Shown: piece by piece, positions 275-37,901 of the stretch
How the letters are laid out: each line of letters opens with the position of its first letter
How positions within the stretch are numbered: position 1 is the stretch's first letter
NCBI RefSeq assembly: GCF_045037415.1
Contig: NZ_CP173438.1
DNA length: 64,000 nucleotides
Strand: one strand, 5' to 3'
Origin: Escherichia coli
GTDB lineage: Bacteria; Pseudomonadota; Gammaproteobacteria; Enterobacterales; Enterobacteriaceae
Made by a program: the position numbers and the translations under genes
Notes under the pieces: generated by a model
Database searches by the model: none
Seen by the model: only the letters and a program-made list of their open reading frames with translations
What the model was told of the DNA's origin: nothing

Positions 275-527
275 CTGGCAAGTTTGCAGCCTGGTCGTGC
301 AGGCCAAAAGCGAACGAATTTCAGACATCAGCACCCAACTGAACGCCTTTACCGGCTGTGAAGTTGCTGTCAGCGACGCGCCGAGCGGTCAGTTGATTGT
401 GGTGGTGGAAGCAGAAGACAGCGAAACGCTGATCCAAACCATTGAGTCAGTACGCAACGTAGAGGGCGTGCTGGCGGTGTCGCTGGTTTATCACCAGCAG
501 GAAGAGCAAGGTGAGGAAACACCATGA
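264..527 (+). CDS. napD: NapD, chaperone for NapA Tat signal peptide
   Basis: 87-aa ORF MHTNWQVCSLVVQAK...; position between napF and napA; stop overlaps napA start (ATGA). Confidence 0.95.
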   Translation: MHTNWQVCSLVVQAKSERISDISTQLNAFTGCEVAVSDAPSGQLIVVVEAEDSETLIQTIESVRNVEGVLAVSLVYHQQEEQGEETP

Positions 528-3011
528 AACTCAGTCGTCGTAGCTTTATGAAAGCTAACGCCGTTGCGGCCGCTGCGGCGGCTGCCGGTTCTCAGCGTGC
601 CGGGCGTTGCCCGCGCCGTTGTTGGTCAGCAGGAAGCCATTAAATGGGATAAAGCGCCGTGCCGTTTCTGCGGTACGGGTTGCGGCGTTCTGGTCGGAAC
701 GCAGCAGGGGCGTGTGGTGGCTTGTCAGGGCGACCCGGACGCACCGGTTAACCGTGGCCTGAACTGCATTAAGGGCTATTTCCTGCCCAAAATCATGTAC
801 GGTAAAGACCGTTTGACGCAGCCGCTGCTGCGTATGAAAAACGGTAAATATGATAAAGAAGGCGAATTTACCCCAATCACCTGGGATCAGGCCTTCGATG
901 TGATGGAAGAGAAATTCAAAACCGCCCTGAAAGAAAAAGGGCCGGAATCGATCGGTATGTTCGGTTCTGGTCAGTGGACTATCTGGGAAGGTTATGCCGC
1001 GTCCAAGCTGTTTAAAGCGGGCTTCCGTTCGAACAACATCGACCCGAACGCGCGTCACTGTATGGCGTCGGCAGTAGTTGGCTTTATGCGTACCTTTGGT
1101 ATGGATGAGCCGATGGGCTGCTATGACGACATCGAGCAGGCTGACGCGTTTGTGCTGTGGGGCGCAAACATGGCGGAGATGCACCCGATCCTCTGGTCGC
1201 GCATCACTAACCGTCGTCTCTCTAACCAGAACGTTACCGTGGCGGTGCTTTCTACCTACCAGCATCGTAGCTTCGAGCTGGCGGATAACGGCATCATCTT
1301 TACGCCGCAATCTGACCTGGTGATCCTGAACTATATCGCCAACTATATCATTCAAAACAATGCGATAAATCAGGACTTCTTCAGCAAACACGTTAACCTG
1401 CGCAAAGGGGCGACGGACATCGGCTACGGTTTACGTCCGACCCATCCGCTGGAAAAAGCAGCGAAGAATCCGGGTTCTGACGCCTCCGAACCGATGAGCT
1501 TTGAAGATTACAAAGCCTTCGTTGCTGAATATACGCTGGAAAAAACCGCCGAAATGACCGGCGTGCCGAAAGACCAGTTAGAACAACTGGCGCAGCTGTA
1601 TGCCGATCCGAACAAGAAAGTCATCTCCTACTGGACGATGGGCTTCAACCAGCATACCCGTGGTGTGTGGGCCAACAACCTGGTCTACAACCTGCACCTG
1701 CTGACCGGCAAAATTTCCCAGCCGGGTTGCGGTCCGTTCTCCCTGACCGGGCAGCCTTCCGCGTGTGGTACTGCGCGTGAAGTGGGCACCTTTGCTCACC
1801 GTCTGCCTGCGGACATGGTGGTGACTAACGAGAAACATCGTGATATTTGCGAGAAGAAGTGGAATATCCCGAGTGGCACCATTCCGGCGAAAATCGGTCT
1901 GCACGCGGTGGCACAAGACCGTGCGCTGAAAGACGGCAAACTGAATGTTTACTGGACCATGTGTACCAATAACATGCAGGCCGGACCGAACATTAATGAA
2001 GAGCGTATGCCGGGCTGGCGCGATCCGCGCAACTTTATCATCGTTTCCGATCCATATCCGACGGTCAGTGCGCTGGCAGCGGACTTGATCCTGCCGACCG
2101 CAATGTGGGTAGAGAAAGAGGGGGCTTACGGTAATGCCGAACGCCGTACTCAGTTCTGGCGTCAGCAGGTACAGGCACCGGGTGAAGCAAAATCGGATCT
2201 CTGGCAGTTAGTTCAGTTCTCCCGTCGCTTCAAAACTGAAGAAGTGTGGCCGGAAGAGCTGCTGGCTAAGAAACCGGAACTGCGTGGCAAAACGCTGTAT
2301 GAGGTTCTGTATGCCACTCCGGAAGTGAGCAAATTCCCGGTATCCGAACTGGCGGAAGATCAGCTGAACGACGAATCTCGCGAGCTGGGCTTCTATCTGC
2401 AAAAAGGGTTGTTCGAAGAGTACGCATGGTTTGGTCGCGGTCACGGTCACGATCTCGCGCCGTTCGATGATTACCACAAAGCACGCGGTCTGCGCTGGCC
2501 GGTGGTGAACGGTAAAGAAACGCAGTGGCGTTACAGCGAAGGTAACGACCCGTACGTGAAAGCGGGCGAAGGCTACAAGTTCTACGGTAAACCGGATGGC
2601 AAAGCGGTGATCTTCGCGCTGCCGTTCGAACCTGCGGCGGAAGCGCCGGATGAAGAGTACGACCTGTGGCTCTCTACCGGACGCGTCCTGGAGCACTGGC
2701 ATACCGGCAGTATGACTCGCCGTGTACCGGAACTGCACCGCGCCTTCCCGGAAGCGGTTCTGTTTATTCACCCGCTGGATGCGAAAGCGCGCGATCTGCG
2801 CCGTGGCGACAAAGTGAAAGTGGTTTCTCGCCGTGGCGAAGTGATCTCGATTGTCGAAACGCGCGGTCGTAACCGTCCGCCGCAGGGCCTGGTGTACATG
2901 CCGTTCTTCGACGCCGCACAGCTGGTTAACAAACTGACGCTGGATGCGACCGATCCGCTCTCGAAAGAGACGGACTTCAAGAAGTGCGCGGTCAAACTGG
3001 AGAAGGTGTAA
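524..3011 (+). CDS. napA: Periplasmic nitrate reductase catalytic subunit NapA, disrupted by an apparent +1 frameshift at about 589-590 (pseudogene or sequence error)
   Basis: ATG at 524 encodes Tat leader [22 protein letters not shown], then frame stops at 641-643; the rest of NapA ([32 protein letters not shown]... to ...[10 protein letters not shown]) is in the +1 frame as the 815-aa ORF 564..3011. Confidence 0.9.
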
Positions 3012-22375: not shown

Positions 22376-23965
22376 TCAGCTCAACGCCAGTAGCTGACGC
22401 GTATACTCCTGCTGCGGTGCGGCAAACACGCGCGCGCACGGTCCTTGTTCCACTACTTCCCCTTGTCGCAGTACGATAACCTGATGACATAACGCGCGGA
22501 CAACGTGCAAATCGTGGCTGATAAACAAATAGGCCAGTTGATGCTTTTGTTGCAATGATTTCAATAGCGTCAATATTTGCGCCTGCACCGTTTTGTCGAG
22601 TGATGATGTTGGTTCATCAAGAATGATCAGCGAGGGCTTAAGAATTAACGCCCTGGCAATCGCAATACGTTGCCGCTGACCACCAGAGAACTCCGCCGGA
22701 TAACGGTGGCGTGTTTCAGGATCTAATCCCACTTCATGCATCACGGCTATCACTTGTTGTTCGCGTTGTGCGGCAGAAAGCGTCGGCTGGTGAACCCGTA
22801 AGCCTTCCTCAATAATTTGCAAAACGTTGAGTCGTGGGTTGAGTGAGGAGTTTGGATCCTGAAATACCACCTGAATGCGATGACGAATAGGTAACAGCTG
22901 GCGGCGATTTAAATTTTGCAGTGGCTGACCGTCAAAGACGATGCTGCCATGAGAGTTAATCAGTCGCAGCAGCGCCAGTCCCGTCGTGCTTTTCCCGGAA
23001 CCGGACTCGCCCACTAAACCCAGTGTTTCACCCGCCCGTAGCGTAAAACTGATGTTTTTCACCACCACATTATGATCCACAATGCGCTTCAAAATCCCTT
23101 TGCGAATGGGGAAGGCAACCTGAAGTTGTTCAACATCCAGCAACGTTGAGGCAGGTTCTGGCAATGGCACCGGGTCGCCAGATGGTTCACTGTTGAGTAG
23201 CTTTTGTGTGTAAGGATGAGTGGGTGAGGCAAATAGCGTAGCGGCGTTATTTTTCTCGACACAGCGACCGTTTTGCATTACCGCCACGCGGTGGGCCAGT
23301 TTTCTAACAATGCTGAGGTTATGAGTAATAAACAGCATACCCATATTCAGCTCGCCTTGCAGTTCGCGCAACAGCTGTAAAATCTGCGCCTGGACAGAGA
23401 CGTCCAGCGCGGTGGTTGGTTCATCGGCAATTAATAATTCCGGTCGCGTTAACAGCGCCATCGCAATCATCACCCGCTGGCGTTCGCCGCCGGAGAGCTG
23501 ATGCGGATAATCTGTCAGCCGTTTTGCCGCCTGGCGGATACCGACGCGATCAAGGCAGTTAAGAATTTCGCCACGAGCCGCTTCCCGACGCATCCCGCGG
23601 TGGAGTGAAAGCACTTCATAAAGCTGTTTTTCCAGGGTATGTAATGGATTTAACGACACCATCGGCTCCTGAAAAATCATGGCGATCTTATTACCGCGTA
23701 CACCGCGCAACGTTTGATCGCTGGCATGAAGCAGCGATTCGCCATGAAAACGAATATCGCCGGAGAGATATTCAACCGGCGGGCAAGGGAGCAGGCGTAA
23801 AATTGACAGCGCGGTAACGCTCTTACCTGAACCAGACTCACCTACCAGCGCCAGCGTTTCGCCAGCCTCAATGTGTAGTGACACATCATTCACTACGGTA
23901 CGAACAGTTTGCTGATGGCGAAAACCCACCGACAAATTTTCAATCGCTAACAGAGTTTGCGTCAT
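22376..23965 (-). CDS. yejF: Peptide/microcin C ABC transporter ATPase YejF (duplicated ABC domains)
   Basis: [15 protein letters not shown]...; two Walker A motifs (GESGSGKS twice) and two LSGG signatures; 529 aa from internal ATG. Confidence 0.93.
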
Positions 23966-23966
23966 G

Positions 23967-24992
23967 CTACACCGCCTTATTAGGATCAAATGCGTCGCGG
24001 ACGGCTTCACCAATAAAGATCAGCAAAGACAACAATATCGCCACCGATAAGAAGGCGGTGATCCCAAGCCACGGGGCCTGAAGGTTATTTTTCCCTTGTA
24101 ACAGGAGTTCGCCGAGTGACGGTGAACCGAGCGGCAGACCGAAGCCGAGGAAATCGAGTGAGGTCAGGGTGGTTATCGAACTACATAAAATAAACGGTAA
24201 AAAAGTGAGGGTAGCGACCATGGCATTTGGCAACATATGACGCAGGATGATACTGCGATCGCTGACGCCAAGCGCCTGCGCCGCGCGGATGTAGTCGAAA
24301 TTACGGGTACGTAAAAACTCCGCCCGCACCACGCCGACCAGACTCATCCAGCCAAACAAGACAGTAATTGCCAGCAGCCACCAGAAGTTAGGCTGTACGA
24401 CGCTGGAAAGTAAAATAATCAAAAACAGCGTCGGCATCCCCGACCATACTTCAATAAAACGTTGCCCCCAGAGATCGACTTTACCACCGTAATAGCCTTG
24501 TAGCGCCCCCGCCAGCACACCCATCACGCTGGAGCAGAGGGTCAGCATCAGGCCAAACAGAACTGAGATCCGCGTGCCATAGAGAATGCGCGCCAGCACA
24601 TCGCCGCCATTGGCATCCGTTCCCAGCCAGTTTTGCCGGGAGGGTGGAGAAGGGAAGGGCTTATCGGTAGCAAAGTTGATACTGGTAGCACCAAAGCGAA
24701 TCGGTGCCCACAGTACCCAGCCGTTATTTTCCAGTCGTTGTTTCAGCCACGGGTCCTGATAATCAGCCTGACTTGCCAGCGGGCCGCCAAAATCGCTTTC
24801 GCTGTAGTTTTTCAACAACGGGAAATACCAACTGCCGTCATAACGCACCAGCAACGGTTTATCGTTGGCGATAAGTTCAGAACACAAACTCAAACCAAAC
24901 AAGAGGAGGAAAATCCATAACGACCAGTAGCCGCGACGGTTATGGCGAAAACGCGCCCAACGGGCCTGATTGACGGGGCTGAGTCGCGACAT
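23967..24992 (-). CDS. yejE: Peptide ABC transporter permease YejE
   Basis: 341-aa membrane [31 protein letters not shown]... Confidence 0.93.
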   Translation of the reverse strand: MSRLSPVNQARWARFRHNRRGYWSLWIFLLLFGLSLCSELIANDKPLLVRYDGSWYFPLLKNYSESDFGGPLASQADYQDPWLKQRLENNGWVLWAPIRFGATSINFATDKPFPSPPSRQNWLGTDANGGDVLARILYGTRISVLFGLMLTLCSSVMGVLAGALQGYYGGKVDLWGQRFIEVWSGMPTLFLIILLSSVVQPNFWWLLAITVLFGWMSLVGVVRAEFLRTRNFDYIRAAQALGVSDRSIILRHMLPNAMVATLTFLPFILCSSITTLTSLDFLGFGLPLGSPSLGELLLQGKNNLQAPWLGITAFLSVAILLSLLIFIGEAVRDAFDPNKAV

Positions 24993-26087
24993 TAACGTCC
25001 CTCAAAGTCTATACGCGGATCGACCAGCGTATAGCTGATATCACTGACAATATTCAGCAGCAGGCCAATCAGGGTGAAAATATACAAGGTACCAAACATT
25101 ACAGGATAATCGCGCGAGACGGTCGCTTCGTAGCCCAGTAAGCCAAGACCATTGAGTGAAAACATCACCTCAATCAGCAGCGAGCCGGTAAAAAACATGC
25201 TGATAAACGTCGCCGGAAAACCGGCAATCACCAGCAGCATGGCGTTGCGGAACACATGTTTCCAGAGAATATTTTTTTCACTTACCCCTTTCGCACGTGC
25301 CGTCACCACGTATTGCTTACGCACTTCATCAAGGAATGAGTTTTTTGTCAGCATGGTCAGAGCCGCAAAGCCGCCAATCACTGTCGCCAGCACCGGCAGC
25401 GTGATATGCCACAGATAATCGGTGATTTTCTGATACCACGGCAGCGAATCAAAGTTAGCGGAAACCAGGCCGCGCAGAGGGAACAGATCGAAATAGCTGC
25501 CGCCCGCGAAGAAGACAATCAGCAGGATGGCAAACAAAAAGGCCGGAATGGCGTAGCCGATGATGATAAATGCACTACTCCAGACGTCAAAACGGCTCCC
25601 ATTATAAACAGCTTTGCGAATGCCTAACGGAATCGACACCAGATAGATAATCAGCGTGCTCCACAATCCGAGGGTGATGGAGAACCGGCAGACTGTCTTT
25701 AATCAGCGTCAGCACCGAGGCGCTGCGAAAAAGGCTGTCGCCAAAATCAAAACGGATGTAGTCCCAGAGCATTTTGAAGTAACGTTCGTGGATCGGCTTA
25801 TCGAAACCGTAGCGATGAGTGATCTCGGCGATCACTTCTGGATCTAATCCGCGTCCGCCACGGTAATTACTGTCGCTGATATTGCCGACGCCCGTTTGCG
25901 CATGGCTGGCGCGAACACCTTCACCGCCTGCGCCGGGTAATACTCCGGCATTGCCAAACTCAATGGCGGCGATGGCCTGGTCGACCGGACCGCCAGGCGC
26001 AATTTGCACGATGAAAAAGTTGATAGTGATAATCGCCCATAGCGTTGGGATCACCAGCAACAGACGGCGGATCAGATAAGCGCCCAT
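24992..26087 (-). CDS. yejB: Peptide ABC transporter permease YejB, disrupted by an apparent +1 frameshift near 25683-25684 (pseudogene or sequence error)
   Basis: N-terminal part [28 protein letters not shown]...LIKDSLPV in ORF 25602..26087, C-terminal part ...[17 protein letters not shown]...DPRIDFEGR in ORF 24992..25666; the frames differ by one extra T. Confidence 0.9.
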
Positions 26088-27908
26088 CTACTCTCCCTGT
26101 TGTCTGGCTGACGGCAGTTTCGTCGCTTTATTAACGTCATACCACCAGGTATCAATACCCAGGCTGTAAACTGGGCGTACAGCGGGTTGGGAGAATTTAT
26201 CCCACCAGGCGAGACGGTCTTCCGCCATGTACCACATTGGCAGCATGTAATAATTCCACGTTAATACGCGATCCAGTGCTCGTCCCAACGGCAGTAATTT
26301 TTCTTTATTTCCCTGCGCGGCAATAATTTGGTTGATCAGCGAGTCGATAACCGGGCTTTGCACGCCGGGGGCATTATAAGTGGAATTGATATATTCCGAT
26401 GACCAGGAAATCTGTAAATCGGAACTGGGCCACGGCATCGCCCGCCATACGCGCGGCATCATGTCATAGTCGCGACTGCGCATGCGGTTGGTGATTTGCG
26501 AGTTATCCACCTTGCGAATGTCCATGTTGATACCCAGCCGTTGCAGGCTGTGCTGGAACGGCAATACCCACTGACTATTGCTGCTTGCGGGAAGCAATAA
26601 TTCAAAGCTGAGTGGCTGACCTGTTGTGGCATTAACGCGTTGCTGACCCTTCAGCACCCAGCCTGCTTCGTTGAGAAGTTTGTCGGCTTTTAACAGGTTG
26701 TCACGATCGTAGCCATCGCCTTTGGATACCGGCGGCTGGTAGATTTGCGTGAAGACTTCTGGCGGTAGATCTTTTTTCATTGGTGCCAGAAGCACCAGTT
26801 CCGCGGCGTCGGGGTAATTTCTGGCCGCATATTCGGTATTCTGAAAATAACTGTTCGTGCGACTCCAGGTATTGTAAAACAACGCCTTGTTCATCCATTC
26901 AAAGTCAAAGGCGAGAGTGATCGCTTCCCGCACCCGGCGATCGCTGAATACCGGACGTTGGATATTAAACGCCAGCCAGCGCGTATCCTGGGCTGATTCG
27001 TTCTTTTGCTCATCTTTGATGATGTATTTTTTATCGAAATTTTTACCGGTATAGCGCGTGGCCCAGTTTTTGGCGTCGTTTTCCATACGCAAATCAAAGG
27101 CTCCTGCTTTAAACGCTTCAAAGGCGACATTATCATCGAGGTAATAATCGTAGCGAATGGTGTCGAAATTCCAGCGTCCACGGTTTACCGGTAAGTTTGC
27201 TGCCCAGTAATCTTTCACGCGGGAATAGACAATATTTTGCCCCATTTTCCAGGACGTAATGCGGTACGGACCACTGGCAAGCGGAGGCGTGGCGAGCGGG
27301 TCGCTAATTTTGTGATCTTTCCAGTACTTTTCTGGAAATACCGGCAGCGAAAACAGACTCAGCATATCTTCTTTGCCGGGTTTAGCTAACTCAATGCGCA
27401 CGGTTAACGGCGCAATGGCTTTGACGGTGGTGCCTTTGTAGACCAGACGAAATTGCGGCACGCCTTCGGTCATAAATTTTTGAAAAGTAAACTCTACATC
27501 GCGGGCAGTAATGGGCGAACCATCATGAAAACGGGCGCGTGGATTAATAGCGACCTCCACCCAGGAATAATCGTCAGCATAGCGTGCGCTTTCAGCAATC
27601 AGCGGGTAATAACTGCCTGGTTCGTCATCGGAAGTCGTAAATAGCGTGTCGTACAGCTGCTCGGTGCGTGCGCCCGGATTGCCGCGCAGTGCATAGCGGT
27701 TGAAATTATCGAAGGTGCCGAGGGCAGACAACGTTATTTGCCCACCTTTTGGCGCGGCGGGGTTCACATAATCAAAATGGTTGAAATTAAATGCGTACCG
27801 GGGTTCGCCCAGTACTGCAAAGGCATAGCTTTCCTTGATAGCCTGCGCCTGCGCACCAAAGGTGAACAGAGCGATAAACAGCAGCAGTATGCGCACAATC
27901 ATCTGCAA
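26088..27908 (-). CDS. yejA: Peptide ABC transporter periplasmic substrate-binding protein YejA
   Basis: 606-aa ORF with signal peptide (LLLFIALFTFGAQAQA) and family 5 solute-binding fold. Confidence 0.92.
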   Translation of the reverse strand: MQMIVRILLLFIALFTFGAQAQAIKESYAFAVLGEPRYAFNFNHFDYVNPAAPKGGQITLSALGTFDNFNRYALRGNPGARTEQLYDTLFTTSDDEPGSYYPLIAESARYADDYSWVEVAINPRARFHDGSPITARDVEFTFQKFMTEGVPQFRLVYKGTTVKAIAPLTVRIELAKPGKEDMLSLFSLPVFPEKYWKDHKISDPLATPPLASGPYRITSWKMGQNIVYSRVKDYWAANLPVNRGRWNFDTIRYDYYLDDNVAFEAFKAGAFDLRMENDAKNWATRYTGKNFDKKYIIKDEQKNESAQDTRWLAFNIQRPVFSDRRVREAITLAFDFEWMNKALFYNTWSRTNSYFQNTEYAARNYPDAAELVLLAPMKKDLPPEVFTQIYQPPVSKGDGYDRDNLLKADKLLNEAGWVLKGQQRVNATTGQPLSFELLLPASSNSQWVLPFQHSLQRLGINMDIRKVDNSQITNRMRSRDYDMMPRVWRAMPWPSSDLQISWSSEYINSTYNAPGVQSPVIDSLINQIIAAQGNKEKLLPLGRALDRVLTWNYYMLPMWYMAEDRLAWWDKFSQPAVRPVYSLGIDTWWYDVNKATKLPSARQQGE

Positions 27909-36770: not shown

Positions 36771-37901
36771 ATGTTCCAGTTATCTGTACAGGACATCCAT
36801 CCGGGCGAAAAGGCCGGAGACAAAGAAGAGGCGATTCGCCAGGTCGCTGCGGCGCTGGTGCAGGCCGGTAATGTAGCTGAAGGCTACGTCAATGGCATGC
36901 TGGCGCGCGAACAGCAAACCTCAACGTTCCTCGGCAATGGTATTGCTATTCCACACGGCACTACCGACACCCGCGATCAGGTGCTGAAAACCGGCGTTCA
37001 GGTATTTCAGTTCCCGGAAGGCGTCACCTGGGGGGACGGCCAGGTAGCGTACGTGGCGATCGGTATTGCTGCCAGCTCGGATGAACATCTGGGCCTGCTA
37101 CGCCAGCTGACCCACGTACTGAGCGATGATTCCGTTGCTGAACAACTGAAGTCAGCAACAACAGCAGAAGAACTTCGCGCATTGCTGATGGGCGAAAAGC
37201 AGAGTGAGCAGCTGAAGCTCGACAACGAAATGCTGACGCTGGATATCGTCGCCAGCGATCTGCTGACTCTTCAGGCGCTGAACGCTGCGCGTCTGAAAGA
37301 AGCGGGGGCAGTTGACGCCACTTTCGTCACCAAAGCCATCAATGAACAACCGCTGAACCTCGGACAGGGTATCTGGCTGAGCGATAGCGCCGAAGGCAAT
37401 CTGCGTAGCGCGATTGCGGTAAGCCGTGCGGCAAATGCTTTTGATGTGGACGGCGAAACGGCAGCCATGCTGGTGAGTGTGGCAATGAATGACGATCAGC
37501 CCATCGCGGTTCTTAAGCGTCTCGCTGATTTGTTGCTCGATAATAAAGCTGACCGCTTGCTGAAAGCGGATGCGGCAACGTTGCTGGCGCTGCTGACCAG
37601 CGATGATGCGCCGACCGACGACGTGTTAAGCGCGGAGTTTGTGGTGCGCAATGAACACGGCCTGCATGCTCGTCCAGGTACCATGCTGGTCAATACCATT
37701 AAACAATTTAACAGTGATATTACCGTGACAAACCTTGATGGCACCGGCAAACCGGCAAACGGACGTAGTCTGATGAAAGTTGTGGCACTTGGCGTTAAGA
37801 AAGGTCATCGCCTACGCTTTACCGCCCAGGGTGCAGATGCTGAACAGGCGCTGAAAGCCATTGGCGACGCTATCGCTGCTGGTCTTGGGGAGGGCGCATA
37901 A
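36771..37901 (+). CDS. fruB: Fructose PTS diphosphoryl transfer protein FruB (EIIA-FPr)
   Basis: 376-aa ORF; EIIA domain (GIAIPHG) and C-terminal HPr-like domain (GLHARPG). Confidence 0.95.

Follow-up and report, generated by a model that had tools for sequence, protein, structure and literature searches.

An extra T in yejB of an Escherichia coli ST131 assembly: almost certainly a sequencing error rather than gene loss

The split yejB gene

Has this Escherichia coli lost the permease of a peptide importer, or does its assembled chromosome only read as though it had? The gene at issue, yejB, encodes the ABC permease of the YejABEF peptide/microcin C importer. It runs on the minus strand of the window (the whole 64-kb stretch of DNA that was analysed) from an ATG at 26087 to a stop at 24992, and it stands in the operon order expected of it, yejA-yejB-yejE-yejF; its length, 1096 nt, leaves a remainder of one on division by three, and its reading frame is disrupted by comparison with intact orthologues. 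An N-terminal ORF (25602..26087, minus strand) specifies residues 1-134 of YejB, up to ...LIKDSLPV, and then 27 residues out of frame before a stop. A C-terminal ORF (24992..25666, minus strand), which overlaps the first by 65 nt and opens at a TTG "start" that is purely mechanical, runs to the natural C-terminus of the protein. The original prediction, of a gene divided into two overlapping ORFs by a +1 frameshift, is thus borne out by the ORF coordinates and by alignment with the intact allele of ST131 relatives; the same alignment places the first mismatch at gene position 404/405, in codon 135, where CCGGTCTCC has become CCGGTTCTCC.

The lesion lies where it was said to lie, at the plus-strand AA of 25683-25684: the coding strand has TT at 25684-25683, in place of the single T of other E. 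coli, and codon 135 changes from GTC to GTT C. Taking away one T makes the gene identical to the yejB of SK1144, whose product is WP_000501604.1 (364 aa). The claim that the gene has one T more than its K-12 counterpart is equally sound: the single-T version, found as a 59-nt sequence when the 60-mer is matched with a one-base gap, is present in K-12, in O157:H7 and in ~5,040 genomes in total. The extra T is not within a homopolymer run. Once repaired, YejB has 100% identity to WP_000501604.1, and BPD_transp_1 (PF00528) matches its residues 152-359 with E = 3e-39; the entire domain falls downstream of the frameshift, inside the C-terminal ORF. The neighbouring genes, all on the minus strand, are intact, as had been stated, and have the same protein accessions as in EC958: yejA (26088..27902; by its relatives' annotation the WP_001554206.1 allele of ST131 clade C), yejE (23967..24992) and yejF (22376..23965), the last two by the ORF list and annotation. 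PGAP labels yejB a "frameshifted" pseudogene in every carrier record examined.

What would follow if the extra T were genuine? Translation would end at 161 residues and yield a protein that has TM1 and the periplasmic loop but neither TM2-TM6 nor the permease domain. The start of yejE and the stop of yejB overlap, so translation of yejE would lose its coupling as well. YejABEF imports microcin C, and a strain null for yejB would no longer take it up (PMC10924461, PMC4010828); loss of that uptake would follow from the known role of the importer. To this extent the reasoning of the original prediction, which went from the lesion to loss of the importer and possible microcin C resistance, holds. 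Its description of the sequence is exact; its biological reading is most probably wrong, since the extra T toggles among near-identical assemblies at Eco31I-methylated sites.

A motif shared with napA, and the Eco31I methyltransferases

The extra T of yejB has a twin. Only two SNPs (14697 and 55956) and two one-nt indels separate the 64-kb window from EC958, and both indels are a T added within the identical 11-mer CTGCCGG[T]CTC: the one in yejB, and another at 589-590 in napA (gene 524..3011; catalytic subunit of the periplasmic nitrate reductase). The window reads GCTGCCGGTTCTCAGC at the napA site and TCTGCCGGTTCTCCAT on the coding strand at the yejB site; in each of them the T of CTGCCGG-T-CTC is doubled. 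The resulting 12-mer, CTGCCGGTTCTC, occurs twice in the window (at 582..593 on the plus strand in napA, by comparison with EC958, and at 25680..25691 on the minus strand in yejB) against an expectation of 0, and no copy of the unmodified CCGGTCTC is left in the 64 kb. In napA the added T shifts the frame in the Tat signal-peptide region, and this gene too is flagged "frameshifted" in carrier annotations.

The core of both sites is GGTCTC, the recognition sequence of Eco31I/BsaI. The T of yejB is added inside it, at GGT|CTC, directly 5' of the methylated C and in the CTGCCGG context; neither a Dcm (CCWGG) nor a Dam (GATC) motif lies at this site. EC958, an ST131 strain, carries the type IIS restriction-modification system Eco31I (EcoMI) on its GI-leuX island (Forde et al. 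2015, PMC4659465). M1.EcoMI generates GAG(m6A)CC, and SMRT sequencing found 100% of these sites methylated; GGT(m5C)TC is the predicted product of M2.EcoMI; the endonuclease cleaves outside its recognition site; and the system is found in ST131 clades A and C, not in clade B (PMC4659465). By motif comparison with that system, the 12-mer in yejB is an Eco31I site, GGT-m5C-TC/GAG-m6A-CC, with an inserted T. Its genes are at 4,977,699-4,982,256 in EC958 (and not at 1-20 kb or 4.90-4.95 Mb of that chromosome). The recognition sequence described for ST131, GGTCTC/GAGACC, is the motif affected here. The system itself, on GI-leuX, is outside the window; it enters the argument as the proposed source of the disturbed signal and forms no part of the locus itself.

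All insertion carriers have the methyltransferase genes. They are present in 19 of the 19 genomes with the yejB insertion (98194 and Esc20 among them) and in ~635 of 5,425 genomes altogether; some ST131 genomes, such as LS4, are without them. One carrier of the napA insertion, 98212, is not ST131 (its identity to the window is 98.0%), and the hypothesis of an artefact predicted that Eco31I should nonetheless be found in it. It was found: a chimeric query, composed of the nap region of 98212 and the two EC958 methyltransferase genes, matches in two places in 98212 and in one place in each of its 24 nearest relatives, which have neither the napA insertion nor the Eco31I methyltransferase genes.

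The remaining Eco31I sites of the window can be accounted for individually. The 64 kb have six of them, and of the four positions at which the window departs from EC958, three are on these six, at the same T-C step. The third of the three is at 14697, in yejM on the minus strand: GAAACC (14695..14700, plus strand) stands in place of the Eco31I site GAGACC, a synonymous change in which the window has A and EC958, Esc10, Esc26, ECKH-100 and A1.S1.126 have G, equivalent to m5C read as T on the opposite strand. Either a further miscall due to methylation or a true mutation by deamination of m5C could explain it. (The A at 14697 is also found in Esc17, Esc20 and 439, the last two being identical to the window over 14000-38999.) At the GGTCTC sites of 19632, 39747 and 61259 the window agrees with EC958.

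(Two further observations belong here. Eco31I sites are strongly under-represented: dinucleotide shuffles lead one to expect 16.7 +/- 4.1, and the assembled window has 3 (the corresponding stretch of EC958 has 6); the next 50 kb of the chromosome, as seen in Esc26, has only one; this scarcity is consistent with restriction-site avoidance or with effects of codon usage. The second SNP, at 55956 in the folE region, where the window has T and EC958 and Esc26 have C (GGGTACC for GGGCACC), is to our knowledge in no methylation motif of ST131 and may be a real strain SNP.)

Distribution of the insertion among E. coli genomes

The yejB insertion was sought in 5,426 complete E. coli genomes by exact match to a 60-mer centred on it. 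Nineteen have it: 98194 (Egypt, urine), A1.S1.126 (Poland, urine), 439 and 446 (both Taiwan), and 15 "Esc" assemblies. The napA insertion is present in 17 of the 5,426, in a set of carriers that is only partly shared with the first. Just five submission batches (OZ3692-4xx, CP1735xx, CP1830xx, CP146588 and CM181230) account for all carriers of either insertion, and neither insertion was found among the many other Eco31I-positive ST131 genomes listed.

One can take the occurrence of the insertion in genomes from Egypt, Poland and Taiwan and in an unlabelled series, 19 complete public records in all, as the mark of a genuine inherited frameshift: an ST131 sublineage would then have lost YejB, and its importer would be inactive and its members resistant to microcin C. 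The pseudogene call made by PGAP, a site free of homopolymer runs and a permease domain lying wholly downstream all fit that reading, and the recurrence of one insertion in four or five independent submissions would, by itself, usually suggest a real variant. Inheritance requires that the carriers form a clade, and they do not.

The window is, by sequence comparison, E. coli ST131 clade C. Esc20 is the sole public genome that matches it at both SNPs and both indels relative to EC958, and a 25-kb stretch of the window is identical in Esc20 and in 439 from Taiwan. Esc17 equals the window over 50 kb except that its yejB is intact, and in the 50 kb over which ECKH-100 was compared its sole departures from the window are at two Eco31I sites, the one with the yejB insertion and the one at 14697. 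Esc10 and Esc26 both have chromosomes of 5,156,501 bp, with 5,113 annotated features each, and their sole differences over 100 kb are a reciprocal pair: the extra T is in napA in Esc10 and in yejB in Esc26. (An additional 50 kb of this comparison has zero differences and no CCGGTCTC site; it confirms that the two are clonal and supplies no further site.) Among the Esc assemblies of near-identical size (5,156,475-5,157,288 bp), eight have both insertions, four only that in yejB and five only that in napA. Conversely, the ST131 background of 98194, which also has the yejB insertion, is a different one: its ccm region has 61 SNPs, and in place of the yejA allele common to 366 genomes (the window, EC958 and JJ1886 included) it has another. 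A1.S1.126 has the insertion yet differs from the window at 14697. These linked markers conflict (in Esc17, 98194 and A1.S1.126), and descent of the yejB insertion from one origin cannot account for them.

(A side observation on ECKH-100: this isolate, from sputum in Taiwan, has a chromosome of 5,068,873 bp, within 41 bp of the 5,068,914 bp of Esc20. The two may be one strain sequenced twice, in which case the ECKH-100 assembly would be a direct resequencing that shows an intact yejB. As to markers, an ST131 subclade made up of the yejB carriers was considered and rejected, since 27308, 14697 and the ccm block give four-gamete conflicts; 14697 was in turn discarded as a phylogenetic marker, lying as it does within an Eco31I site.)

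An insertion that toggles between assemblies otherwise identical over 50-100 kb, that sits on at least two different ST131 backgrounds, that has its identical counterpart in the identical 11-mer of napA assorting independently of it, and that is seen in yejB in none of the remaining ~615 Eco31I-positive genomes has a distribution incompatible with descent, and a genuine inherited loss of YejB is very improbable.

Methylation, consensus errors and the state of YejABEF

The extra T in yejB is very probably a methylation-induced consensus error of long-read sequencing (Oxford Nanopore being the likeliest platform) at an Eco31I site methylated on both strands, and the real chromosome most probably has intact yejB and napA genes and a functional YejABEF. 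The present analysis establishes the motif and its recurrence, a distribution that does not follow descent, and methyltransferase genes in the carriers; a methylated motif, a methyltransferase in the carriers, recurrence in the same context and variation among near-identical assemblies are what one looks for in an error of this kind.

How might the error arise? Eco31I would give one strand of the site the form GGT(m5C)TC and its complement the form GAG(m6A)CC. The modified bases at CCGGT(m5C)TC/GAG(m6A)CCGG would distort the signal in such a way that "T-m5C" is called as "T-T-C"; with the miscalled fraction of reads large and near the consensus threshold, the consensus would flip between GGTCTC and GGTTCTC from one assembly to another. 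A further dependence on sequence context must be assumed because only some Eco31I sites are affected. We infer the sequencing platform, and the modified-base signal as the cause; for the platform the grounds are the error spectrum (homopolymers, GATC and Eco31I sites) and a length scatter of 1-70 bp among assemblies of the same clone.

One carrier assembly displays that spectrum on its own. At the equivalent of window position 37036, A1.S1.126 has a deletion in a G6 homopolymer in fruB, which is annotated as frameshifted; at the equivalent of 39749 it has a T added at CCGGG[T]CTC in fruA, also annotated as frameshifted, which is in no other genome searched and is private to that assembly; at the equivalent of 21696 it has a C->T change in a Dam GATC site. 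Homopolymer indels and changes at GATC sites are typical classes of long-read error, and their presence points to A1.S1.126 as a generally error-prone long-read assembly.

Methylation-induced, strand-specific nanopore errors vary between assemblies of one and the same isolate, and confusion of C with T and of G with A predominates on R10.4.1 flow cells (Lohde et al. 2024, PMC11610573; PMC11610603). The events described here resemble those errors in arising at the sites of strain-specific methyltransferases, in being context-dependent, strand-specific and variable from assembly to assembly, and in generating false allelic differences. They differ from them in kind: the errors that those papers describe at methylated motifs are mainly substitutions (C<->T, G<->A) and not one-nt insertions (PMC11610573, PMC11610603). 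The change at 14697 is of the described C->T/G->A type; the yejB and napA events are insertions of one T before m5C, and yield false frameshift pseudogenes, on what would be the same kind of platform. The literature on GGTCTC and nanopore errors yielded no description of this specific error, and no publication naming the carrier assemblies or their accessions was found.

If the toggling is not inherited, could it nevertheless be real? The Eco31I-methylated CCGGT(m5C)TC might be a reversible hotspot of T insertion, promoted by the Eco31I methyltransferase or endonuclease, so that yejB and napA are switched on and off within ST131 clones in a manner resembling phase variation. The events are strictly motif-specific and confined to Eco31I-positive genomes, and the extra T does come and go among near-identical genomes. 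The target sites of m5C methylation are hotspots of C->T mutation, which could explain 14697; we know of no mechanism that would add a T at a non-repetitive GT|C step. A rate of insertion sufficient to leave ~50% of sister isolates in each state should have left its mark on the older ST131 genomes, of which there are hundreds, and no such mark is seen there; Eco31I cuts outside its site (PMC4659465); and the carrier assemblies also have long-read errors of unrelated types. A real hotspot is for these reasons highly improbable. If it did exist, it would amount to methyltransferase-target-dependent phase variation of yejB (peptide and microcin uptake) and of napA (periplasmic nitrate reductase).

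That yejB functions as it is written, by programmed +1 ribosomal frameshifting, by transcriptional slippage or as a split permease, is barely conceivable, for all that the two ORFs overlap and the second holds the complete permease domain: there is no slippery or stall motif at GTT CTC CAT and no run of A or T on which transcription could slip; the mechanical TTG lacks a Shine-Dalgarno sequence and lies 64 nt short of the stop of the upstream ORF, so that no coupling is possible; and the arrangement, confined to 19 of 5,426 genomes, is not a conserved design because ~5,040 other E. coli genomes lack it.

What, then, does a consensus error at a methylated Eco31I site mean for the genes that appear to be broken? 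For quality control the meaning is modest and practical. On this reading "complete" genomes of ST131 and of other Eco31I-positive strains carry false frameshifted pseudogenes (yejB, napA, fruA), and these would corrupt counts of pseudogenes, cgMLST and SNP distances, and inference from genotype to phenotype. A simple flag for such errors is CCGG-TT-CTC where relatives have CCGG-T-CTC. (Not every broken gene in the window is of this class: the remnant of an autotransporter beta-barrel at ~12922-13844, between narP and tRNA-Pro, is frameshifted, has an internal stop and is incomplete. Because it is a pseudogene in EC958 and in all ST131 relatives examined, it looks like an old and genuine one, unlike yejB and napA.)

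For the biology of the strain the meaning is more direct. The extra T in yejB is best regarded as no real feature, and is almost certainly a sequencing error rather than a gene loss. It is one of a motif-specific class that toggles, and is therefore not to be read as an inactivation of the importer or as a predictor of microcin C resistance; in this the original prediction is not supported, the comparative evidence favouring an artefact. Reads with one T fewer, as in K-12, were named beforehand as the finding that would tell against a real lesion, and true DNA of just that form is what the comparison of genomes points to. There is, in contrast to the known loss-of-function mutants of YejABEF, no credible evidence that yejB is broken in this organism. 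Its gene order is that of the known importer and its permease, repaired by one base, is an ordinary YejB: no phenotype toward microcin C or antimicrobial peptides is to be predicted from this sequence, and the strain should have a working YejABEF.
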